NCBI GenBank assembly: GCA_039933475.1
Contig: JBDTOA010000001.1
Location: 1 to 33,842, forward strand
Reading direction: 5' to 3'
Length of the DNA stretch: 33,842 nt
Source: Dermatophilaceae bacterium
Lineage (GTDB): Bacteria; Actinomycetota; Actinomycetes; Actinomycetales; Dermatophilaceae
Positions 2,030-11,201 of this stretch are shown here, piece by piece. Both the position numbers and the translations under genes were made by a program. The notes under the pieces were generated by a model. It was given only the letters and a program-made list of their open reading frames with translations. It was not told the DNA's origin and searched no databases. Positions within the stretch are counted from its first letter, which is position 1. The number at the start of each line of letters is the position of its first letter.

Positions 2030-2367
2030 ATGTTCGTGCTCAGCCGGAGGAATCGAGATCACTGTGGTCACATCAGCTGATCCTCGTTGAGTTGAGCTGG
2101 TCGTTTTGGTGGCCTGCAGGCCACACCCCGGACAGCGACGATCTCTTCGGGAGACGGCTCCGAGCTGCCGACTGGTACGAGATGGTCGTTGCGTCCGAGA
2201 CCGGGTCGCTGGGATCTGCGCGGCACGAGGACGGCGAGAGTAGTCCTTCGGGATGAGGACACGGCTCGGGCCCTGGAGCAGAGTGGACCTGGATGCCTCG
2301 GCGATTTGACAAGAGCACCCACCGCGACCGCGACCGCGCCCGCGAACTCCTCGCCAAGGAGCACCAC

Positions 2368-3324
2368 ATGCACCGGAAGTCCCTGCTGCGTCGGCTGGCA
2401 CTGGCCGTCGTCACCGTCACTGCCCTGGCCGTTCCTGTCGCCCTGGGCTCGAACGCTTCTGCAGTGACCGGAGGCCCCCGCACCTGGCAAGTCCGCGTCG
2501 GCACCGAGTCACCTGACATGGCCGTCAGTGCGATGGCGTTCTTGCCGAAGGAGGTCTGGGTCGACGTCGGCGACACCGTCCACTGGACTGCGGGCAGCGC
2601 CGAGCCGCACACCGTCACGTTCCTCGCGCCGGGAGACTCACTCCCCGAGTTCAACCTCTTCGACCCGTCGCAGACGGGTCCTGTTGGCTCCTCGAGCTAC
2701 GACGGCACCGGGTACACGAACTCCGGGATCATCGCCACCCAGCCGATCTTCGTCTTCACCGACCCGGCGTCCAGCTACGACCTGACCTTCACAGCGACCG
2801 GCGACTTCACGTACTACTGCCTGTTGCACGGCGTAATGATGACCGGCGTCGTGCACGTCAGCGCGGCCGGCACTGCCTACCCGTACACCCAGCAGGACTA
2901 CAACCGGGCCGGCAACCACCAGGCCGCGGCAGCGCTCTTTGCCGGACGCACCGCCTATCGCCAGGCCAGGCAGGCGCACGCCACCACCGGCTCACAGGTA
3001 CAGGTCGGGATTGACGGAGAAGGCTTCTCGGTCATGCGGTTCGTGCGAGACAACGTCGTCGTGCACGTGGGAGAGACCGTGTCGTTCTCCACCGCCGGGC
3101 CCGGCGCGCCGCACACAGTCACCTTCGGCCAGGAGCCGCCCGGACTCGGAGTCCTCGGTCCGTCCGGCGACCCGACCCACTACGGCGGCGGCGACCTCAA
3201 CAGCGGGGTGCTTGCGCCCGGGGTCCCGTTCACCGTGACCTTCACCGCCGCTGGCAAGTACCACTACATCTGCGCCATCCACGACGACATGGGGATGGTA
3301 GGCGACGTCGTGGTCGTCCCCTGA
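2368..3324 (+). CDS. Secreted tandem-cupredoxin (plastocyanin/azurin-like) copper protein
   Basis: AAGGAG lies 6 nt upstream of the ATG at 2368. The signal peptide is MHRKSLLRRLALAVVTVTALAVPVALGSNASA. There are two repeats, each with a type-1 copper ligand set: EPHTVTF...YYCLLHGVMM and APHTVTF...YICAIHDDMGM. The ORF-track start at 2293 is probably too far upstream. Confidence 0.85.
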   Translation: MHRKSLLRRLALAVVTVTALAVPVALGSNASAVTGGPRTWQVRVGTESPDMAVSAMAFLPKEVWVDVGDTVHWTAGSAEPHTVTFLAPGDSLPEFNLFDPSQTGPVGSSSYDGTGYTNSGIIATQPIFVFTDPASSYDLTFTATGDFTYYCLLHGVMMTGVVHVSAAGTAYPYTQQDYNRAGNHQAAAALFAGRTAYRQARQAHATTGSQVQVGIDGEGFSVMRFVRDNVVVHVGETVSFSTAGPGAPHTVTFGQEPPGLGVLGPSGDPTHYGGGDLNSGVLAPGVPFTVTFTAAGKYHYICAIHDDMGMVGDVVVVP

Positions 3325-3375: not shown

Positions 3376-3610
3376 TCGGCGAGCCGGCCCAAGAGTCCCG
3401 GTTGCAAGGGTCCGGCACTGACCCGAGGGTGGCTCCTGGTCGCCGTAGGCGATGCTGGCAGCGAACGCCAACGTCGCCTCGAGTTGTTCCTTGGACGGGC
3501 CGAGCCCGTTGCGGCGGACGATGTCGGCGCACGAACTGCGCCCGAGAGAGGCCACCTGCGGGCAACCAGCCCACCACCACCACTCCGCAGGTCACGAGGA
3601 GAGGATCTTG

Positions 3611-3693
3611 TGCCGGGAGCGGGACTTGAACCCGCACGCCCTTGCGAGCAAAGCATTTTGAGTGCTCCGTGTCTGCCATTCCACCACCCCGGC
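3611..3693 (-). tRNA. tRNA-Leu (anticodon CAA), type II with long variable arm
   Basis: The minus strand reads GCCGGGGTGGTGGAATGGCAGACACGGAGCACTCAAAATGCTTTGCTCGCAAGGGCGTGCGGGTTCAAGTCCCGCTCCCGGCA. It has a 7-bp acceptor stem, anticodon loop CUCAAAA, a GGTTCAAGTCC T-arm and discriminator A. CCA is not encoded. Confidence 0.95.
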
Positions 3694-3794: not shown

Positions 3795-4352
3795 TCAGCC
3801 CTGACTCTCGACCCTGAACACGGGAGTGCCGCCCACGCATACCGCGGTCACTTTGGTCCCCCCATGACGCTCTTCATCGCCAGGGCCAAAGGCGACCTCG
3901 ATCTGGTCCGGACCGGCATTTTCAACCTGCACACGCCACCCGTTATCGGGTTGGGCGATTCGCAGCTGGATCACGTTTCCCGTGCAGCGCACCGAGACCT
4001 GACCCCCGGTGGCACTGAAGGTACGGTCTTGCGAGGTCGGGACAACCGGCGCACGCAATGTCGGCGAAGAGGGTTTCTGCGGAGCAGGACTCTTACCCAC
4101 GGGCGCGGGTACAGGCGCCTTGGTGGTCGGCTTGGCCGAGGGTGTGGGGGTTTGGGTAACCGTCTTCGGCGCTCCCGGCTCAGTCGTGGCCGTTGGCGTG
4201 CCTACGTTCAGGGGGGACATCGAGTTGACAAGACCAGTAGTCATATCACGGCCGGCTCGGTCGATGGCCACCCATGCGGCCACTGATACGCCAGCTACAG
4301 CGGTGACCCAGATCAGGCCGATACCGACCGCCGAGCGCAGCTTCACCACCAT
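3795..4352 (-). CDS. Single-pass membrane protein with Pro/Thr-rich linker and C-terminal globular domain (unknown function)
   Basis: MVVKLRSAVGIGLIWVTAVAGVSVAAWVAI is an N-terminal anchor. It is followed by a TPTATTEPGAPKTVTQTPTPSAKPTTKAPVPAP linker and then about 80 aa with good GC3. The gene is divergent from the response regulator. The start is uncertain; alternatives are 4382 and 4418. Confidence 0.6.
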   Translation of the reverse strand: MVVKLRSAVGIGLIWVTAVAGVSVAAWVAIDRAGRDMTTGLVNSMSPLNVGTPTATTEPGAPKTVTQTPTPSAKPTTKAPVPAPVGKSPAPQKPSSPTLRAPVVPTSQDRTFSATGGQVSVRCTGNVIQLRIAQPDNGWRVQVENAGPDQIEVAFGPGDEERHGGTKVTAVCVGGTPVFRVESQG

Positions 4353-4408: not shown

Positions 4409-5107
4409 GTGGCCACAATCTTGCTCATCGAGGACGACGTAGGGATCCGGTCGGCGATGACCCGGACCCTGACCGACCTGGGCCATGCCGTTGCAACAAG
4501 CGACCGGGGCATGCCCGGGCTGGAGCTGGCCGTCGACAACCCACCTGACGTCGTGCTGCTCGATCTCGGCCTGCCGGACCTCGATGGGTTGCAGGTGCTG
4601 GCGATGCTGCGCGCGGTCAGTGCGGTGCCGGTGATCATCATCACGGCCCGCGATGACGATGCTGACATCGTGGCGGCCCTCGACGGTGGCGCCGACGACT
4701 ACGTGGTCAAGCCGTTCGGGATCGAGCAGGTCGACGCCCGACTCCGCGCTGTTCTTCGTCGAAGCAGCTCTGCGGCCGCGGACGGCCCTCTGGTCGTAGG
4801 GGGGCTCAGCATCGACTCGCGGACGCGGCAGGTCACTCTTGACGGGCTCCCGATTGACCTGTCGCGTAAGGAGTTCGACCTGCTCTTTGCCCTGGCGCAG
4901 CGACCCGGGGAAGTGGTCACGAAGCGCGAGCTGCTTGCCGACGTCTGGCGCCAGAGCTATGGAGGGGGCGACCGGACGGTCGACGTCCACCTGTCGTGGT
5001 TGCGGCGCAAGCTCGGCGAGACCGCAGCGGATCCACGCTACCTGCACAGTGTCCGTGGCGTGGGTGTGCGGCTTGCAGCTCCCCCAGACGCGTCCAGCGG
5101 GCATTGA
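4409..5107 (+). CDS. OmpR/PhoB-family response regulator
   Basis: The receiver domain is ILLIEDD...VVLLDLGLPDLDG...DDYVVKPF. The C-terminal winged-helix region is LSRKEFDLLFALAQRPGEVVTKRELLADVW...RTVDVHLSWLRRKL. GTG start. Confidence 0.93.
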   Translation: MATILLIEDDVGIRSAMTRTLTDLGHAVATSDRGMPGLELAVDNPPDVVLLDLGLPDLDGLQVLAMLRAVSAVPVIIITARDDDADIVAALDGGADDYVVKPFGIEQVDARLRAVLRRSSSAAADGPLVVGGLSIDSRTRQVTLDGLPIDLSRKEFDLLFALAQRPGEVVTKRELLADVWRQSYGGGDRTVDVHLSWLRRKLGETAADPRYLHSVRGVGVRLAAPPDASSGH

Positions 5108-6402
5108 TGCGTCGTCGGATCTCATTGCTTGTGGCGGCCACGACATCAGCGGTCATCCTCGCATTCTTGATCCCGTTGGGGATGCTGGTACGCACTCTCG
5201 CTGAAGACCGGGCCATCGCCGGCGCCAGCCAGGAAGCGCAGGCGGTTGCCACTCTGGTCGCCGGGGTGAATGACGAGACCCAGCTCACAGACCTGGTCGG
5301 TCTGGTCGACCAGCGGTCGCAGCGGGCCACGTCGGTTCTGTTGCCTGACGGCACTCTCATCGGCACGGCCCCGCAAGGCTCGGCGAAGTCGAATGCTTCG
5401 GCAGTGGCGCGAGCAAGAACCGGTGAGGCGTTCACCCTCATACAGGACGAGAACGCAGAAGTTGTCGTGCCCGTTGTCACCGAGCGCGGCACTGTGGTCG
5501 TGCGGACCTCGATCAGCGGTGGCGACCTGCACCGGGGGGTGGCCACGGCGTGGCTTACCTTCGCGGGTCTGGGGGTGGTGCTCATGATCATCGCAGTGGT
5601 CGGCGCAAATCTGCTGGGGCGTCGAGTCAGTGCCCCGGTGACCGAGCTGGCCGCCGTGGCGCACCGCCTTCGGGCGGGAGAGCTGGAGGCCAGAGCGGTG
5701 CCACGCGGACCCGTCGAGACCGTCGAGCTGGGCGAAGCACTCAATCGCCTGGCCGACCGCATCGGTGAGCTGCTCACAGCAGAACGGGAGGCGGTTGCCG
5801 ATCTCTCGCACCGGCTGCGAACTCCGGTCACCGCGTTGCGCCTGGATGCCGAAGCCGTCGCCGAGCCCGAGCTCGCAGACCGACTCCGTGATCACATCGG
5901 CCACCTTGAGCGCACGGTGGACGCCGTTGTCAAAGATGCTCGGCGCCCCGTCCGAGGGACCATCGGACGGTCGTGCGACGCCTCAGCTGTGGTGCGAGAC
6001 CGGGTCGCCTTCTGGTCGGCGCTGGCCGTTGACCAGGACCGGAACCTCAACGTCTCCATCCCTTCGACTCCCTGCCTGGCGGCCATCGATGCATCCGATC
6101 TCGTGGATGTTGTAGACGCGTTGTTGGACAACGTCTTTGCGCACACTCCTGACGGGACTGACTTCTCCGTGTCCCTGACAAGAAGCGATCAGAAGATGCT
6201 GCGTCTGGAGGTCGCAGACGACGGCCCAGGAGCCGGGGACACTGACGTTGCCAGACGCGGTCACAGCACCGGCGACTCCAGCGGTCTTGGTCTGGATATC
6301 GTGCGAAGGGCCGCGGTCGCCGCCGGCGGAGGGCTGGTGGTTGCCAGCTCCCCAACCGGCGGCATGCTGGCTCTGGTCACACTGGGAGTCAGCACAGGCT
6401 GA
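5107..6402 (+). CDS. Sensor histidine kinase (2 TM, HAMP, HisKA, HATPase)
   Basis: The ATG at 5107 overlaps the regulator stop (TGATG). TM1 is ISLLVAATTSAVILAFLIPLGML, followed by an extracytoplasmic loop of about 140 aa, and TM2 is WLTFAGLGVVLMIIAVVGANLL. The H-box is SHRLRTPVTAL. N, G1 and G2 boxes are DNVFAHTP, DDGPGAG and GLGLDIV. Confidence 0.92.
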   Translation: MRRRISLLVAATTSAVILAFLIPLGMLVRTLAEDRAIAGASQEAQAVATLVAGVNDETQLTDLVGLVDQRSQRATSVLLPDGTLIGTAPQGSAKSNASAVARARTGEAFTLIQDENAEVVVPVVTERGTVVVRTSISGGDLHRGVATAWLTFAGLGVVLMIIAVVGANLLGRRVSAPVTELAAVAHRLRAGELEARAVPRGPVETVELGEALNRLADRIGELLTAEREAVADLSHRLRTPVTALRLDAEAVAEPELADRLRDHIGHLERTVDAVVKDARRPVRGTIGRSCDASAVVRDRVAFWSALAVDQDRNLNVSIPSTPCLAAIDASDLVDVVDALLDNVFAHTPDGTDFSVSLTRSDQKMLRLEVADDGPGAGDTDVARRGHSTGDSSGLGLDIVRRAAVAAGGGLVVASSPTGGMLALVTLGVSTG

Positions 6403-6425: not shown

Positions 6426-6908
6426 TCAGTGCGAGGCCTCCATGCTGTCATCGTGAACGGCTTCTGTGGCGCCGTCGTCAGCTGAGCTGTCGTCGGTCGT
6501 GCCCTCGGCGTCGTCCTTCTCCTCCATAGCATCATCGCCGACCTTCGTCGTGTCTTCGGGGGCTTTGATCGCACTCCCCGGAGCCTCTGACGCGTCGTCG
6601 CCCGAAGCGGACGGCCCGGTGCTCTCTTGGGCACCAGTACTGTCGTCCGACACCTGTGAGCCGGTCGGAACCTGAGCGGCAGCTGGAGCCGGAACCACGA
6701 GGGTGCGCACGACATGTATGACGCATACGCCGTCCTCCAGCTTCTGGCCTTTGGCACAGTGGGCAACCGCAGCCGGTACTGACACCGCAGCCTTTGTCGT
6801 CTTCATGCTCGGCGTGGCGGCGGAGGACACGGCACCGTAGACCGCGGCCCCGGCAACGAGGCCTAAGGCAGCGCCGCTGATGACGGTAAAGCTCGGGCGG
6901 ATAATCAT
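6426..6908 (-). CDS. Membrane-anchored acidic low-complexity protein (unknown function)
   Basis: GGAGA lies 4 nt upstream of the ATG at 6908. The N-terminal anchor is FTVISGAALGLVAGAAVYGAV. It has a short HC-x10-C-x2-H motif (AHCAKGQKLEDGVCVIH) and then a D/E/S/T-rich tail. Its GC3 is lower than that of its neighbours. Confidence 0.6.
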   Translation of the reverse strand: MIIRPSFTVISGAALGLVAGAAVYGAVSSAATPSMKTTKAAVSVPAAVAHCAKGQKLEDGVCVIHVVRTLVVPAPAAAQVPTGSQVSDDSTGAQESTGPSASGDDASEAPGSAIKAPEDTTKVGDDAMEEKDDAEGTTDDSSADDGATEAVHDDSMEASH

Positions 6909-6962: not shown

Positions 6963-7006
6963 CCTCATGCGCACCTCGCGAGAACCTCAAGTCAACGTCA
7001 AGAACT
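6963..7006 (-). promoter_or_regulatory. Array A: four 11-bp-phased repeats (minus-strand consensus TCTTGAGG)
   Basis: The plus-strand 11-mers start at 6963, 6974, 6985 and 6996: CCTCATGCGCA / CCTCGCGAGAA / CCTCAAGTCAA / CGTCAAGAACT. Reverse complements of the 8-mers are GCATGAGG, TCGCGAGG, ACTTGAGG and TCTTGACG. The array lies 55-98 bp upstream of the 6908 start and is oriented with that gene. Confidence 0.55.
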
Positions 7007-7033
7007 TCGCCGCCCACGTCGGTCCCTCGCGCC

Positions 7034-7074
7034 GCTTGACGTCTCCTTAACACCAATCTGAGGCCGCCTTGTAC
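7034..7074 (+). promoter_or_regulatory. Array B: four 11-bp-phased repeats (weaker matches to TCTTGAGG)
   Basis: The 8-mers at 7034, 7045, 7056 and 7067 are GCTTGACG, CCTTAACA, ATCTGAGG and CCTTGTAC. The array mirrors array A (ACGTCAAG vs CTTGACGT) and lies 72-112 bp upstream of the 7146 start. Confidence 0.4.
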
Positions 7075-7145
7075 CTCCGGCCCGCACCCTTGCCTCTGCT
7101 GTGCTTCTGCACCTCTGGGGTGCCCGCAGAGATGAAAGGAATCCA

Positions 7146-7688
7146 ATGAGCCACGTCATGCTCTGGTTCGCGAACCGCGGAACCGGGGTCGTCCTGCTCG
7201 TGCTGCTGACACTCTCGACGATGATAGGTGTCCTCTCCACATCCCGCCTGAGCCCGCGGCTCTGGCCTCGGATGCTGACCCAGGGTCTGCACCGCCACGT
7301 AGCCGTGCTGGCGCTCAGCTTCATGGCTGCCCACACCCTGACAGCCGTTGCAGACAGCTTCATCGACATTCGCTGGTGGCATGCCGTTGTGCCGTTCACC
7401 GGTTCCTACCGACAGCCCTGGCTGGGCATCGCGGCTCTCTCGATGGACCTGTTCATCGCCGTTGGGGTGACGAGCGCACTTCGCCACCGGATGTCACATC
7501 GGCCCTGGCGTGGCGTTCACGTCCTCGCCTATGGCGCATGGGGCCTCGGGCTCGTCCACGGGATCCACGGAACCGACTCCGCCACCATCTGGGGGCAAGC
7601 ACTGAACTACGGGTCAGTTGCCGCCGTCACGATCGCAGTCCTCGCTCGCATAGGACTGCTCGCCCATTCGAAGGTCGTGACTGCATGA
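7146..7688 (+). CDS. Ferric-reductase-type (NOX/MsrQ-like) two-haem transmembrane protein, paralog 1
   Basis: AAAGGA lies 6 nt upstream of the ATG at 7146. There are about 5 hydrophobic helices. His49/His63 are 14 apart and His125/His138 are 13 apart, which matches the bis-haem ligand spacing of gp91phox-type ferric reductase domains. Confidence 0.8.
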   Translation: MSHVMLWFANRGTGVVLLVLLTLSTMIGVLSTSRLSPRLWPRMLTQGLHRHVAVLALSFMAAHTLTAVADSFIDIRWWHAVVPFTGSYRQPWLGIAALSMDLFIAVGVTSALRHRMSHRPWRGVHVLAYGAWGLGLVHGIHGTDSATIWGQALNYGSVAAVTIAVLARIGLLAHSKVVTA

Positions 7689-7702
7689 GCTCAGCCCAGC
7701 AA

Positions 7703-7743
7703 TCTTGAGGTTTTCTTAAGGCTGACCTGATGCCGTCTTGCGG
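7703..7743 (+). promoter_or_regulatory. Array C: four 11-bp-phased repeats, consensus TCTTGAGG
   Basis: TCTTGAGG (7703), TCTTAAGG (7714), ACCTGATG (7725) and TCTTGCGG (7736). The array lies 46-86 bp upstream of the 7789 start, in the only sizeable gap inside the cluster. Confidence 0.55.
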
Positions 7744-7788
7744 CCCGGGGCCCGACTCTGGTGGCTGCCAACCCGATGGAGGACCTGG

Positions 7789-8253
7789 ATGCCCCGCGAC
7801 ACCGCGTCTCGCGACGTGAAGCTCAACGCCCTGGCCATACTCACAGGTGGGATCACAGCGGCCGCCTTCGTAGGCACCGGCCTCGTCACCGGCATGGCTG
7901 CCGACTACACGGCGCAGAAGACCCAGGCGAAGGCGGCGTCCAAGACTGCTGCCCTTCGCGCGCTGCCGGCGCCTCAGCCCGTTGCCAAACCTCTGCCCGT
8001 CCGCACGGTCGTGACGACCCGGATTGTCCAGGGCGCTCCCGCCGTAGCTGCCCAGACCGGTGGCTCGGGTGGCCAGTTCCGCAGTGGCACGTCCTCGTCC
8101 TCATCCTCGTCCTCATCCAGCCGCTCATCCGCGGCCGCGCCCGCACCAGTCGCTGCTCGTGCCGCCGCGCCGGCCCCTGCTCGTGCCCCCGCTCCTGCAC
8201 CTGTGGCTGCGCCCAAGCCGGCGGCTGCTCCCGCTCCCTCTGCGGCCTCTTGA
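7789..8253 (+). CDS. Single-pass membrane protein with Ser-run and Ala/Pro-rich tail (unknown function)
   Basis: GGAGGA lies 5 nt upstream of the ATG at 7789. GC3 is high through the anchor LNALAILTGGITAAAFVGTGLVTGMAA. This is followed by ...GGSGGQFRSGTSSSSSSSSSSRSS and (A/P)n. The stop overlaps the apbE start (TGATG). No recognisable folded domain. Confidence 0.6.
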   Translation: MPRDTASRDVKLNALAILTGGITAAAFVGTGLVTGMAADYTAQKTQAKAASKTAALRALPAPQPVAKPLPVRTVVTTRIVQGAPAVAAQTGGSGGQFRSGTSSSSSSSSSSRSSAAAPAPVAARAAAPAPARAPAPAPVAAPKPAAAPAPSAAS

Positions 8254-9197
8254 TGCCTGCCCTCGAGGTCCGGGAGACGGCGGGGGCCGGGACTGCGAGC
8301 TGGCGAGCCCTGGGCACCTATGTCTACCTCTCAACAGCGGATGTGACAGGGCTGGAGCGCGCACGCCGGATCGCGGTCCGACTGCTCGCCGAGGTCGACC
8401 GCACCTGCAGCCGTTTCCGCCCGGACTCCGACCTGGTCCGCGCGAATCTCAATGCCGGAGCGTGGACCAAGGTTGACCCGCTGCTGGTCCAGGCGATCGA
8501 CACGGCCATGGACGCGGCGGCTCAGACCGACGGGCTCGTAGACCCGACGCTGGGCCGGTCACTCGTTGCGGTTGGCTACGACCGTGACCTTGCTCTGATG
8601 CCGGCCGCATCCTCGGGACCCGCGGGCTTGCCCATACCCGCGCGAAACGGTGCCTGGGCGGAGATTCTGCTCGATCCAGCCGGCGCAGTCCTTGTGCCTT
8701 ATGGGTGCGCGTTGGACCTCGGGGCCACGGCCAAGGCATGGGCCGCTGACCTTATCGCGGGGATCATTGCAGCAGATTCTGACTCGATGTTGGTCATCAG
8801 CCTCGGCGGTGACGTCGCGGTGGCGGGACCTGGCGGCGGATGGCCTGTGGCGATCAGCGAGACGATCGACGACGTGGCCGGTGCCGAGATCGTGCACCTC
8901 CCCTACGGCGGGTTGGCCACCTCCAGCACAGCCGCCCGACGATGGACTCGAGGTGGCGTCACACGCCACCACCTCCTCGACCCGCTCACGGGCGAACCGA
9001 CGCAGGGCCCCTGGCGGACCGTAACTGCCACCGGCGCCACCTGCGTGTCGGCGAACACAGCCAGCACAGCCGCGATCGTGCTGGGCAACGGGGCAGTGGC
9101 GTGGCTCACAGAGCATGACATTCCCGCACGCCTTGTCGACGGGGAAGGCAGGATCGTCCGTACAGCACGTTGGCCCAAGCCGGAGGTGCTTTCATGA
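8253..9197 (+). CDS. apbE: ApbE-family FAD:protein FMN transferase
   Basis: Family-typical segments are WRALGTYVYLST..., DRTCSRFRPDSDL, VDPTLG, LDLGATAKAWAAD, ISLGGDV and HHLLDPLTGEP. No signal peptide or lipobox follows the start at 8253. The ORF-track frame is open back to 7761, but that extension looks like an artefact. Confidence 0.85.
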   Translation: MPALEVRETAGAGTASWRALGTYVYLSTADVTGLERARRIAVRLLAEVDRTCSRFRPDSDLVRANLNAGAWTKVDPLLVQAIDTAMDAAAQTDGLVDPTLGRSLVAVGYDRDLALMPAASSGPAGLPIPARNGAWAEILLDPAGAVLVPYGCALDLGATAKAWAADLIAGIIAADSDSMLVISLGGDVAVAGPGGGWPVAISETIDDVAGAEIVHLPYGGLATSSTAARRWTRGGVTRHHLLDPLTGEPTQGPWRTVTATGATCVSANTASTAAIVLGNGAVAWLTEHDIPARLVDGEGRIVRTARWPKPEVLS

Positions 9198-9739
9198 CCG
9201 ACCCAATGTTGTGGTTTGCCAACCGAGGAACCGGCGTTGTGCTGCTGGTGCTGCTGACCCTCTCGACGCTGCTCGGAGTACTCTCCGGCGCACGTCTTCA
9301 CAACGCGATGTGGTCGCGGATGCTGTCCCAGGGCCTGCACCGCAATGTCTCTTTGCTGGCTGTCGCGCTCATGGCCGCCCACGCCACGACAGCGGTGGTC
9401 GACTCCTTCGTCGACATCCGCTGGTGGCATGCATTCGTCCCGTTCGCCGGAACCTACAAGCCGGTCTGGCTCGGCTTCGGCGCCCTGGCGATGGACCTCT
9501 TGATTGCCGTCACGATCACCAGCGTTCTGCGCCATCGGATGTCACATCGGCCGTGGCGCGCCGTACACCTGCTGGCCTACGCCGCATGGGGCCTTGGCCT
9601 CTTCCACGGGCTGCGAATGGGAACCGACGCGGCCACGGCGTGGGGCACAGCGGTGAACATCAGCTGTGTCGGGGTGGTCTCCGTGGCCGTCCTCGCCCGC
9701 CTCGGCATGCTCGCGCGCTCAACGGCGGCGACCTCATGA
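9194..9739 (+). CDS. Ferric-reductase-type two-haem transmembrane protein, paralog 2
   Basis: The ATG at 9194 overlaps the apbE stop (ATGA), and GGAGG lies upstream. By hand alignment it is about two-thirds identical to the 7146-7688 product. His49, His63, His125 and His138 are all conserved. Confidence 0.8.
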   Translation: MTDPMLWFANRGTGVVLLVLLTLSTLLGVLSGARLHNAMWSRMLSQGLHRNVSLLAVALMAAHATTAVVDSFVDIRWWHAFVPFAGTYKPVWLGFGALAMDLLIAVTITSVLRHRMSHRPWRAVHLLAYAAWGLGLFHGLRMGTDAATAWGTAVNISCVGVVSVAVLARLGMLARSTAATS

Positions 9740-10989
9740 AGTCGCCCATCACGGCCCACGTCGCCGTCCGCAACGACATAGGGCTGGCCCCATATGTGTC
9801 GGAAGGCCCTGCCCTTCTTGCCGGCATCGCAGAAGGCCCGGGCCTCGCCGCTCACCGCCGCCGCCACGGCCCGGCTCCGGCTCCGAGCGCTGACTCGCTC
9901 GTCGAGATGGCCAAAGCCGTGGATCTGCGCGGACGCGGGGGCGCCGGATTCCCTTTTGCGATCAAGCTCGCCACCGCTGCCCGCCGCAAGGCGGTCGTCG
10001 TGGTGAACGCGTCAGAAGGTGAGCCCGCGAGCCACAAGGACGCAGCACTGATCACCTGCTCACCGCATCTTGTCCTGGACGGCGCGGCGGCAGTGGCCCA
10101 TGCGCTGCGTACCCGCGAGGTCCACATCGCCGTGCCTTCCGAGTTCCCCGCCATCCGGCTGGCACTTGAGAGGGCCGTGGGTGAGCGTGCCGCCGATGGT
10201 GAGCGCCTGAACGTACGGCTCCACGACGCATCCCCACGCTTCGTTGCCGGTCAGGCCCAGGCAGTCCTACAGCTCCTTGCGGGTCGCGAGAACCTACCGG
10301 TCACCGCGTGGCAGCCGGAGGCCGTCAGCGGACACCGTGGTCGGCCCACGTTGTTGTCGAACGCCGAGACCTTCGCCCAGATCGGGCACCTGTGTGGTGT
10401 GGGTCCGAAGGGCTATGCCACTCAGGGCACGACACTTGAGCCGGGCACCACCTTGTTGACCCTTCGGGGCGACGGCATGGATCCGCAGGTCCTCGAGGTG
10501 GCTTATGGCACACCGCTGGATGAGGTCCTGGACGAGGCCGAGATGCTCCGCCCGCTGCTGCTGGGCGGCTACCACGGCACGTGGCTGACCCCAAAGCAGC
10601 TGCGCGGCCTGACCGTCTCCCGCAGCGACATCGCGGCGGCCGGGGCAACCCTCGGTGCGGGCGTGATGCTGCCCCTGGCGGAAGGCTGGTGCCCGCTGGT
10701 GCGTACTGCTGCGTTGGTCGACTACCTGGCGGGCCAGAGTGCCGGACGGTGCGGTCCGTGCCTGAACGGTCTGCCGGCGATGGCCGAGGCGCTCCGAGCG
10801 CTTGTGCATGGTGGCGGCCCGGTTCGCCGGGTGGAGGAGCTGTGCGGGCTGGTCGTGAGACGCGGCGCCTGTGCACATCCTGACGGAACGGCCCGCCTCG
10901 TGACCTCGATGCTGCAGCGCTTCGCCGAGGAGGTCGACTCCCACTCCTTGGGCACCTGTCGAAGCAGTCGGGAAGGTGCCCTCGTATGA
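9736..10989 (+). CDS. NuoF-like NAD(P)H/FMN-binding protein (Complex1_51K + SLBB + Fe-S-region-like)
   Basis: The ATG at 9736 overlaps the upstream stop (ATGA). DLRGRGGAGFPFAIK matches the NuoF FMN/NADH glycine motif. The C-terminal SAGRCGPCLNG...GACAHPDG aligns with the NuoF ESCGxCxPCReG...C region, with the first Cys replaced by Ala. Confidence 0.8.
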   Translation: MKSPITAHVAVRNDIGLAPYVSEGPALLAGIAEGPGLAAHRRRHGPAPAPSADSLVEMAKAVDLRGRGGAGFPFAIKLATAARRKAVVVVNASEGEPASHKDAALITCSPHLVLDGAAAVAHALRTREVHIAVPSEFPAIRLALERAVGERAADGERLNVRLHDASPRFVAGQAQAVLQLLAGRENLPVTAWQPEAVSGHRGRPTLLSNAETFAQIGHLCGVGPKGYATQGTTLEPGTTLLTLRGDGMDPQVLEVAYGTPLDEVLDEAEMLRPLLLGGYHGTWLTPKQLRGLTVSRSDIAAAGATLGAGVMLPLAEGWCPLVRTAALVDYLAGQSAGRCGPCLNGLPAMAEALRALVHGGGPVRRVEELCGLVVRRGACAHPDGTARLVTSMLQRFAEEVDSHSLGTCRSSREGALV

Positions 10990-11201
10990 CCGAGCACCAG
11001 CTCCGGGTGGACTGGCCCGCCTGCAAGGCGCACGGTCTGTGCGCCGAGCTCCTGCCCGAGGTCGTCAGCCTCGACGAGTGGGGCTATCCAATCGTGCATG
11101 AGCCAGTGAAGGGCGACGTGCTCGCGATGGCCAAACGCGCTGTCAAGGCATGCCCCACGCTGGCCCTGCGGCTCACCCAGCAGCCCCCGCGTCACAGCTG
11201 A
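10986..11201 (+). CDS. Small single-cluster ferredoxin (CxxHxxC...CP type)
   Basis: 71 aa with an ATGA overlap to the upstream gene. CKAHGLC...ACP is the three-Cys pattern reported for actinobacterial [3Fe-4S] ferredoxins. Confidence 0.8.
   Translation: MTEHQLRVDWPACKAHGLCAELLPEVVSLDEWGYPIVHEPVKGDVLAMAKRAVKACPTLALRLTQQPPRHS

Follow-up and report, generated by a model that had tools for sequence, protein, structure and literature searches.

MsrQ-like flavinylation clusters, which are known mainly from Actinobacteria, typically combine the flavin transferase ApbE with an FMN_bind protein (Meheust 2021, eLife, PMC8238504). The electron donor in such clusters is usually a fused NAD-binding domain, and a NuoF-like (PF10589) protein is found in 31 of them (PMC8238504). 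In E. coli, MsrQ together with Fre has been called a 'two-component NOX-like system', NOX being NADPH oxidase (Juillan-Binard 2017 and Caux 2021, as cited in PMC11031084). Here we analyzed a 33,842-nucleotide stretch of the genome of a Dermatophilaceae bacterium (contig JBDTOA010000001.1, positions 1 to 33,842; hereafter the window) that carries a related gene cassette. Its core encodes a small membrane protein that we call g2, an ApbE-family protein, a ferric-reductase-domain (FRD) membrane protein (FR2), a NuoF-like flavoprotein and a ferredoxin (Fdx). Upstream lie a second FRD gene (FR1), a response regulator (RR), a histidine kinase (HK) and two genes on the opposite strand, for proteins A and B.

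Metal reduction, envelope repair and extracellular respiration by Gram-positive bacteria rest on transmembrane electron export, which in Actinomycetota is largely uncharacterized. Full-text literature searches found no experimental study of an FRD system driven by NuoF and ferredoxin. The cassette described here is compact and testable, since an NAD(P)H dehydrogenase, a ferredoxin, a di-heme cytochrome and a flavin transferase are encoded together, and it may matter for the redox ecology of environmental Actinomycetota.

Our analyses indicate that this is a real, conserved cassette of Actinomycetota that probably passes electrons from NAD(P)H via ferredoxin to a two-heme membrane protein. The explanation that we prefer as a whole, with a probability of roughly 0.5, is a NOX-like exporter formed by the NuoF-like protein, Fdx and FR2, with an ApbE-flavinylated g2 tail outside the cell. 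What we observe directly is how the genes are ordered and translationally coupled, the families to which they belong, their conserved cofactor ligands, and a C-terminal motif that is conserved and co-occurs with ApbE; everything beyond gene content, residue conservation and synteny we infer.

Gene order and the electron-transfer core

The original prediction for this locus, a split NOX-like module, listed six same-strand genes between 7146 and 11201 with the last five overlapping, and all of these open reading frames (ORFs) and overlaps proved exact. The g2 and ApbE genes share a TGATG (8251-8255), and each of the three following junctions is an ATGA (9194-9197, 9736-9739 and 10986-10989). FR1 does not overlap g2, from which it is separated by 100 nt. 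Although the g2 frame is open from 7738, the ATG at 7789 is preceded by GGAGGA and agrees with the starts of the homologs. The ApbE start lacks a Shine-Dalgarno sequence, and its translation is coupled to that of g2.

Neighborhoods of relatives were fetched using homologs of the NuoF-like protein, g2 and the FRD protein (here FR for the family), and the resulting loci were numbered L001-L005, L027 and L081-L096. The contig scan based on the NuoF-like alignment used the patterns LRGRGGAGF and GGYHGTWL, which are common to all NuoF proteins; the matches listed were mostly true complex-I NuoF loci, and the informative ones among them were L001-L005 and L027. The cassette that emerged comprises nine genes in the order A (minus strand), RR, HK, B (minus strand), g2, ApbE, FR, NuoF-like and Fdx. 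The order g2-ApbE-FR-NuoF-Fdx following RR-HK was found in approximately ten distinct lineages with differing flanking genes, a synteny far above chance. Carriers include metagenome-assembled genomes (MAGs) of Dermatophilaceae, which is the window's own group by best hits, and one Nocardioides MAG. The relatives with the cassette are mostly metagenomic, these Dermatophilaceae and Nocardioides MAGs being the few named ones.

Outside these lineages, Solirubrobacteraceae MAGs encode a g2-like protein followed by ApbE, FR, NuoF-like and Fdx, and a reduced core of FR, NuoF-like and Fdx without ApbE is present in Actinomadura, Streptomyces, Rhizomonospora and Paractinoplanes. At every locus examined, including those lacking ApbE, the FR-NuoF-Fdx adjacency is kept with overlapping start and stop codons. 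In two genera the NuoF-like protein and Fdx form a single ORF (L002, 7953-9467, Streptomyces sp.; L003, approximately 7950-9482, Rhizomonospora bruguierae), which is a strong argument that the two proteins work together. The syntenic triad and the fusions support the functional link between the FRD protein, the NuoF-like protein and the ferredoxin that had been proposed.

The assignments of ApbE, the NuoF-like protein and the ferredoxin to their families held in profile searches, with matches to PF02424, to PF01512 and PF10589, and to PF13459, respectively. The NuoF-like protein scores 108.8 bits for PF01512 and 57.5 bits for PF10589, and its profile matches in the PDB are NuoF, HoxF and HydB (1e-39 to 2e-43). 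It reaches 168.6 bits against TIGR01959, well under the NuoF equivalog cutoff of 558.65, and is therefore NuoF-like and not NuoF. The FMN (flavin mononucleotide) and NADH motifs RGRGGA[GA]FP, SEGE[PS]AS.KD and LSN[AG]ET are retained, and two extra Cys residues, C319 and C408, are invariant. No 2Fe-2S_thioredx (NuoE) gene or other nuo gene was found in any cassette neighborhood.

Fdx scores 45.2 bits for PF13459 (cutoff 22.4), and its PDB matches are single-cluster ferredoxins, among them the CxxHxxC protein of R. palustris and ferredoxins of M. tuberculosis. The ligand motif is C13-x2-H16-x2-C19...C56-P57, with three Cys, and the His position is His or Arg across the family. By analogy with known CxxHxxC ferredoxins, the CxxHxxC...CP motif suggests a [3Fe-4S] cluster, so that Fdx is probably of this type.

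In an alignment of 35 FR sequences, H49, H63, H125 and H138 are invariant with spacings of x13 and x12, the His-x13-His/His-x12-His pattern of NOX-type di-heme domains. An AlphaFold2 (AF2) model of FR2 made from the same 35-sequence alignment, of low confidence (predicted local distance difference test score, pLDDT, 51.3), has five helices and places the His pairs within helices 47-74 and 119-139. FR2 is thus predicted to carry two b-type hemes, an inner one at H49/H125 and an outer one at H63/H138. Most of the 120 FR2 homologs listed have precomputed PF01794 matches and YedZ/MsrQ-type names, and precomputed PF01794 matches are also present in the orthologs in L084 and L086. The FR profile gave no significant match against PDB sequences; SpNOX (8qq7) aligned over the H125/H138 helix with E = 0.2. 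Two FR loops are rich in Arg and His, residues 33-46 and residues 112-124, the latter being the invariant RHRMSHRPWR. On a positive-inside reading of the sequence, both loops and the C-terminus would be cytoplasmic, and the invariant D70-D74-I-R-W...P-F...Y88 loop would lie outside. The FR of R. bruguierae (L003) has an extra disordered C-terminal extension of about 400 residues.

The g2 tail, ApbE and competing explanations

The g2 protein has no Pfam or NCBIfam match. Its conserved elements are an N-terminal R-x-R-D followed by one transmembrane helix, a P-x-P-x-RTVVTT block and the extreme C-terminus; the remainder is a hypervariable, disordered Ala/Pro/Ser tail. AF2 predicted one helix (residues 5-57) and no other structure, with a predicted template modeling score (pTM) of 0.18. 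A profile search over 1.84 billion representatives recovered 109 representatives of the family. The motif P-A-P-[S/T]-[S/A/T]-[G/A]-S is present in 114 of 126 near-full-length members and stands at the exact C-terminus in 111 of them. PAPSSGS is the commonest ending, while members of the window's group end in PAPSAAS. Among the other cassette proteins, no conserved [ST][GAS][AGS][ST] window was found apart from the catalytic Ser region of ApbE itself.

The codons of the motif vary synonymously across loci, and the spacing to the next gene ranges from a 4-nt overlap to a 4-nt gap, so that selection appears to act on the g2 peptide and not on a translational signal. The same two observations rule out the idea that the g2 C-terminus is a nucleotide-level signal for the translation of ApbE. 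The possibility that g2 and ApbE are one protein split by a sequencing error or a programmed frameshift was also rejected. Every lineage has the stop codon, and the junction takes several forms (TGATG, ATGA or gaps of 1-4 nt) with no constant frame relation; there is no slippery sequence at the site, and in L084 another gene intervenes. In that locus, tandem g2 paralogs precede ApbE, one at 7001-7474 that ends in PAPSSGS and one at approximately 7660-8185 that ends in PAPTSGS, and the public annotation gives the latter (as 7471-8187) in a wrong frame.

The g2 hidden Markov model (HMM) matched 17 loci, all with ApbE and with g2 always directly upstream of it, and it had no match in the four FR-NuoF-Fdx loci that lack ApbE. 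At two Solirubrobacteraceae loci with ApbE, divergent g2-like genes fall under the HMM threshold and were recognized by eye. The ApbE frame is open through the entire g2 region (window 7761-9197, plus strand), and gene callers sometimes return a spurious 'ApbE' of about 480 residues that absorbs g2. We read the long g2-ApbE 'fusion' proteins, namely database entries P0146 and P0323 (chimeras of the g2 region and ApbE) and a 483-residue call in L090 (4553-6004), as such off-frame or frameshifted gene calls. This open frame probably helps to explain why the g2 family has escaped notice.

The ApbE of the cassette scores 148.6 bits for PF02424 (cutoff 25.6) over residues 21-288, and its PDB matches to ApbE structures range from 2.3e-9 to 2.9e-23. 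Ser241, His257 and Asp285 (V. cholerae numbering) are the only three universally conserved ApbE residues (PMC12052999), and here the equivalents of Ser241 (ATSS) and His257 (HHLLDP) are invariant. The minimal ApbE motif has seven residues, D-x-x-[S/T]-G-A-[S/T]; changing its Asp to Ala has a minor effect, changing Gly to Ala leaves about 50% of flavinylation, and Ser is accepted (PMC12052999). Tags are modified best at protein termini, and cytosolic ApbEs are documented (PMC12052999). Flavinylation has been validated on an unstructured C-terminal extension of FMN_red proteins (PMC11334425), and further ApbE substrates that are still unidentified are expected (PMC8238504). Compared with the minimal motif, the PAPSAAS of g2 matches at the Ser at -3 and the terminal Ser, with small residues between them and no Asp. 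Because of the published motif tolerance, the precedents on C-terminal extensions and the expectation of further substrates, g2 is probably the ApbE substrate of the cassette, replacing the FMN_bind protein.

These elements can be combined into a working model in which three proteins at the core of the nine-gene cassette would together export electrons across the membrane in the manner of a NOX. NAD(P)H would be oxidized in the cytoplasm at the FMN of the NuoF-like flavoprotein, and the electrons would travel by way of the modified Fe-S site of that protein to the small ferredoxin. The ferredoxin would dock on the basic cytoplasmic loop RHRMSHRPWR of FR2. From there FR2 would carry the electrons across the membrane, from the inner heme (H49/H125) to the outer heme (H63/H138). 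ApbE would join FMN to the terminal Ser of the membrane-anchored g2, at the tail end P-A-P-S-x-[G/A]-S. The product would be a flexibly tethered flavin that lacks any folded domain to bind it and stands in place of the FMN_bind protein of MsrQ-like/ApbE clusters. With the g2 tail outside, as judged from charge, the tethered flavin would take electrons from the outer heme and deliver them to an envelope or extracellular acceptor. The two-component system and proteins A and B would probably regulate this system or be served by it, and FR1 would be an additional paralog of this genome only.

Several observations weigh against this model. The assignment of both membrane proteins to the FRD families, made in the original prediction, agrees with the His pattern of both, and the PF01794 profile gives no match above threshold: FR1 reaches 25.3 bits where the gathering score is 28, and no Pfam match was obtained for FR2 itself. 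The AF2 model of FR2 (pLDDT 51) is too poor for a fold comparison. In the NuoF-like protein, the first Cys of the N3 motif C-x2-C-x2-C...C is Ala (QSA..CGPC) in 10/10 orthologs with the other three Cys kept, implying a non-canonical Fe-S site. The g2 consensus S-S-G-S departs from [S/T]-G-A-[S/T], with Gly at -1 instead of -2 and the upstream Asp missing. In ApbE, Asp285 is replaced by Asn (A-N-T-A-S-T) in 11/11 orthologs, so transferase activity is not assured. Finally, a signal-less ApbE is at odds with the predicted location of the g2 tail outside the cell. This leaves three options: an incorrect topology prediction, modification ahead of export, or a different target for this ApbE.

The last point turns on the side of the membrane at which g2 and ApbE reside. 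ApbE had been assumed to be extracytoplasmic, which is not supported for this clade: no signal peptide was found in any of the 11 orthologs, which have 5-20 residues and no hydrophobic segment ahead of the first conserved strand (ALGT). For g2, the family charge distribution predicts an N-in/C-out orientation with the tail outside the cell. The mean charge is +2.1 in the N-flank and -0.3 in the C-flank, and the N-flank is the more positive in 83 members versus 11. The Dermatophilaceae subgroup to which the window belongs has a strongly basic tail (net +7 to +13) and a near-neutral N-flank, which makes the predicted topology of g2 tentative.

One tentative possibility that would accommodate both observations is that g2 is a natural 'flavin-tag', modified by the signal-less Asn-ApbE, whose disordered tether of about 100 residues moves outer-heme electrons into the thick actinobacterial envelope. 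It would have no flavin-binding fold, and apart from the membrane anchor the C-terminal P-A-P-S-x-G/A-S would be its sole conserved functional element. Flavinylation might occur on the cytoplasmic side, shortly ahead of translocation of the final residues; this timing would account for the exact C-terminal position of the site and would require no exporter of flavin adenine dinucleotide (FAD). If true, both the class of ApbE substrate and the mode of extracytoplasmic electron transfer would be new. If g2 is flavinylated by whatever route, the range of ApbE substrates extends to a protein without a folded domain, some of the 'orphan apbE' genomes of the 2021 survey would be accounted for, and a ready-made natural tag would be available for protein engineering.

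Alternatively, the heme chain could be as in our model, with the g2 tail and ApbE both cytoplasmic and the tethered FMN at the inner face of FR, so that the flavin would serve electron entry and not exit, at a site like that of FMN in E. coli MsrQ and of FAD in NOX and STEAP. The missing signal peptide of ApbE fits this arrangement, cytosolic ApbEs being known, as does the basic tail of the Dermatophilaceae subgroup; the cytoplasm supplies FAD with no need for an exporter, and the work cited in PMC11031084 describes E. coli MsrQ as a flavocytochrome for which Fre is the reductant. We nevertheless consider it somewhat unlikely, because the positive N-flank holds across the family and because ferredoxin can reduce heme directly, which would make a second cytoplasmic carrier redundant. 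Long poly-Pro linkers such as that of g2 are, moreover, typical of envelope-spanning segments.

A further view takes the Asp285 replacement at face value. The ApbE-like protein would then be no flavin transferase and might instead be an FAD-binding or structural subunit, and the g2 motif would have another use, for example as a site of O-glycosylation, as a signal read by a protease or sorting factor, or as a contact with A, B or the sensor domain of the kinase. The full replacement of Asp by Asn, the dissimilarity of the g2 motif to canonical SGAT and the conserved neighbors A and B, with their disordered tails and the similarity of RTVVVP in B to RTVVTT in g2, can all be cited in its favor. 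Taken together these proposals are unlikely, since ApbE keeps the equivalents of Ser241 and His257 throughout, its co-occurrence with g2 is strict, and the terminal Ser of g2 is invariant with small preceding residues, as ApbE prefers.

The original prediction as it stood, a split NOX with two different two-heme subunits and with the ApbE target elsewhere in the genome, is very unlikely. It is consistent with the retention of all four heme-ligand His in FR1 as well as in FR2, and with the lack of any FMN_bind, DUF2271 or DUF3570 domain in the cluster. The paralogs are 66% identical. FR1 is missing from L081-L096, including contigs whose FR is 86% identical to FR2, and the relatives with the cassette have one FR gene each. 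FR1 has no close ortholog, its best identity to any homolog among the matches listed being 73%. FR1 is thus an extra paralog peculiar to this lineage or genome, outside the conserved cassette, and a pair of two-heme subunits is not a feature of the system. The conserved g2 motif, its strict linkage to ApbE and the translational coupling of an ApbE gene without its own Shine-Dalgarno sequence also argue for a partner within the cluster; the statement that an FMN_bind partner is absent stands in that no product matches PF04205, and falls short in that g2 probably is the flavinylated partner. That the NuoF-like protein and Fdx are unrelated to FR, acting for example as P450 redox partners while FR is fed by menaquinol as MsrQ can be, is extremely improbable: CxxHxxC Fer4_15 ferredoxins are often P450 partners in Actinomycetota (PDB 8amq and 6mcw are such cases) and the original description of MsrQ was quinol-linked (PMC8238504), but the overlapping FR-NuoF-Fdx adjacency persists even without ApbE and no P450 gene is present in any of these neighborhoods.

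Gene layout, regulator and flanking genes

Table 1. Features of the cassette and its surroundings, in window coordinates
Feature	Position	Strand	Assignment or remark
FR1	7146-7688	+	extra di-heme ferric-reductase-domain membrane paralog (predicted)
g2	7789-8253	+	small single-pass membrane protein; candidate ApbE substrate
C-terminal Ser-Ala-Ala-Ser codons of g2	8239-8250	+	terminal Ser is the proposed FMN attachment site
ApbE-family protein	8253-9197	+	PF02424
FR2	9194-9739	+	conserved ferric-reductase-domain membrane protein
NuoF-like flavoprotein	9736-10989	+	PF01512 and PF10589; FMN/NADH-site module
Fdx, single-cluster ferredoxin	10986-11201	+	PF13459
Response regulator, OmpR family	4409-5107	+	PF00072 and PF00486
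Sensor histidine kinase	5107-6402	+	two transmembrane segments, HAMP, HisKA, HATPase
Protein A	3795-4352 (start codon approximate)	-	ORF; orthologs in same position
Protein B	6426-6908	-	alignments; conserved position
tRNA-Leu (anticodon CAA)	3610-3693	-	between cupredoxin gene and protein A
Secreted-looking protein, two cupredoxin-type domains	2293-3324	+	

The RR stop codon and the HK start codon overlap (TGATG at 5105-5109). The two-component system is of the generic OmpR/EnvZ type; the NCBIfam model closest to the RR is a CseB-like one, for which it scores 183 bits where the cutoff is 350. In all Dermatophilaceae-like and Nocardioides-like loci the RR and the cassette are syntenic.

Protein A is encoded divergently from the RR and has orthologs in the same position in seven loci (L081, L082, L084, L088, L091, L094 and L095). 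Its membrane anchor at the N-terminus is followed by a linker rich in Pro, Thr and Ser and then by a conserved C-terminal domain, some 90 residues long, with two invariant Cys. Protein B, whose position is kept in L082, L084, L086, L088, L091 and L094-L096, has a signal or anchor helix, a conserved C-x10-C, a VVRTVVVP strand and an acidic disordered tail. No Pfam match was found for either protein, nor an NCBIfam match for A. The VVRTVVVP strand of B resembles the RTVVTT strand of g2, and its acidic tail is opposite in charge to the basic g2 tail. In L082, protein B (5123-5746, minus strand) ends in ...PVPTAAS, similar to the g2 motif; other B orthologs end otherwise. Proteins A and B, both small single-pass membrane proteins, may act as partners of the redox system or the kinase or be targets of either, and together with the two-component system they suggest an inducible, envelope-directed function.

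No FMN riboswitch or other known RNA element was found upstream, the tRNA being the sole Rfam match in the window, and a promoter and terminator consensus scan gave nothing exceeding the shuffle expectation. Downstream, the minus strand between 11251 and 20715 encodes pyruvate kinase and the small and large subunits of glutamate synthase. The syntenic pyruvate kinase genes of relatives match PF00224. The last two ORFs of this block would be lgt and trpA, judging from ORF lengths and from the lgt gene that L081 has there. In the window, L081 and L088-L092, this pyruvate kinase/glutamate synthase block is where the cassette is inserted; its location is different in L082, L084 and L094-L096.

Further upstream, the C-terminal domain of the cupredoxin protein scores 74.7 bits against the plastocyanin model TIGR02656, under the cutoff of 87.85, and the protein has the Cu-ligand-like motifs YYCLLHGVMMTG and YICAIHDDMGMVG. 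Such a protein could be an extracellular electron acceptor. Its gene was considered as the outside acceptor of the cassette and set aside, since it is not syntenic in relatives and so is no part of the cassette.

Comparison with described systems

The original prediction stated that no characterized system of this composition was known. While its core idea of the electron path is reasonable, the claim about composition was overstated, given the MsrQ-like clusters with NuoF-like proteins (PMC8238504) and the E. coli MsrQ/Fre system. The MsrQ-like clusters share with the cassette a PF01794 cytochrome beside apbE, a NuoF-like protein proposed as the cytosolic NAD(P)H donor and an occurrence mainly in Actinobacteria, and they too are known from comparative genomics only. 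In that survey, a PF01794 gene was to lie within five genes of one for ApbE, FMN_bind, DUF2271 or DUF3570, and FR2 directly follows ApbE. The survey was also filtered for signal peptides and required an FMN_bind or signal-peptide component (PMC8238504); the ApbE of the cassette has no signal peptide, and no match to FMN_bind, DUF2271 or DUF3570 was found. Cassettes like that of the window may therefore have been excluded. The cassette differs from the surveyed clusters in lacking these three domains, in its signal-less ApbE and in having a domain-less tail protein as the candidate substrate. The survey makes no mention of the ferredoxin, of the two-component system or of proteins A and B (PMC8238504).

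The E. coli MsrQ/Fre pair, to the extent that it is covered in PMC11031084, is similar in that the di-heme FRD protein stands alone and takes its electrons from a cytoplasmic NAD(P)H flavoprotein that is a distinct protein, a split NOX. As described there, Fre differs from the NuoF-like protein in belonging to the FNR family, and the pair works with no ferredoxin intermediary and no ApbE. The acceptor of MsrQ is, in the same account, the periplasmic molybdoenzyme MsrP, encoded beside msrQ, whereas the cassette in the window has no MsrP-like gene. The fused NADPH oxidases (eukaryotic NOX, SpNOX and CsNOX) likewise carry His-x13-His/His-x12-His on alternate helices and move NAD(P)H electrons across the membrane. 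They have six helices, compared with five predicted in FR, and their FAD/NADPH dehydrogenase domain is fused, where the cassette has a separate NuoF-like protein and ferredoxin.

Flavin-based extracellular electron transfer in Listeria (FmnB/ApbE, PplA, Ndh2 and EetAB) also operates in a Gram-positive envelope and uses ApbE-type flavinylation to make an extracytoplasmic acceptor. However, PplA has folded FMN_bind domains, FmnB is a lipoprotein, and electrons pass through quinone with Ndh2 and EetAB, with no FRD cytochrome. The C-terminal extensions of FMN_red proteins (Huang et al. 2024, PMC11334425) and the engineered 7-residue Flavin-tag (PMC12052999) resemble g2 in presenting a Ser or Thr in a short, flexible C-terminal motif. 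In FMN_red proteins a folded pocket receives the tethered FMN, whereas g2 has no folded domain in the AF2 model and its motif, S-[S/A]-[G/A]-S, has no Asp. Set against all of these systems, what appears to be new is the g2 family with its motif, the clade of signal-less Asn-variant ApbE, the obligatory and sometimes fused ferredoxin, and the nine-gene architecture that includes the regulator.

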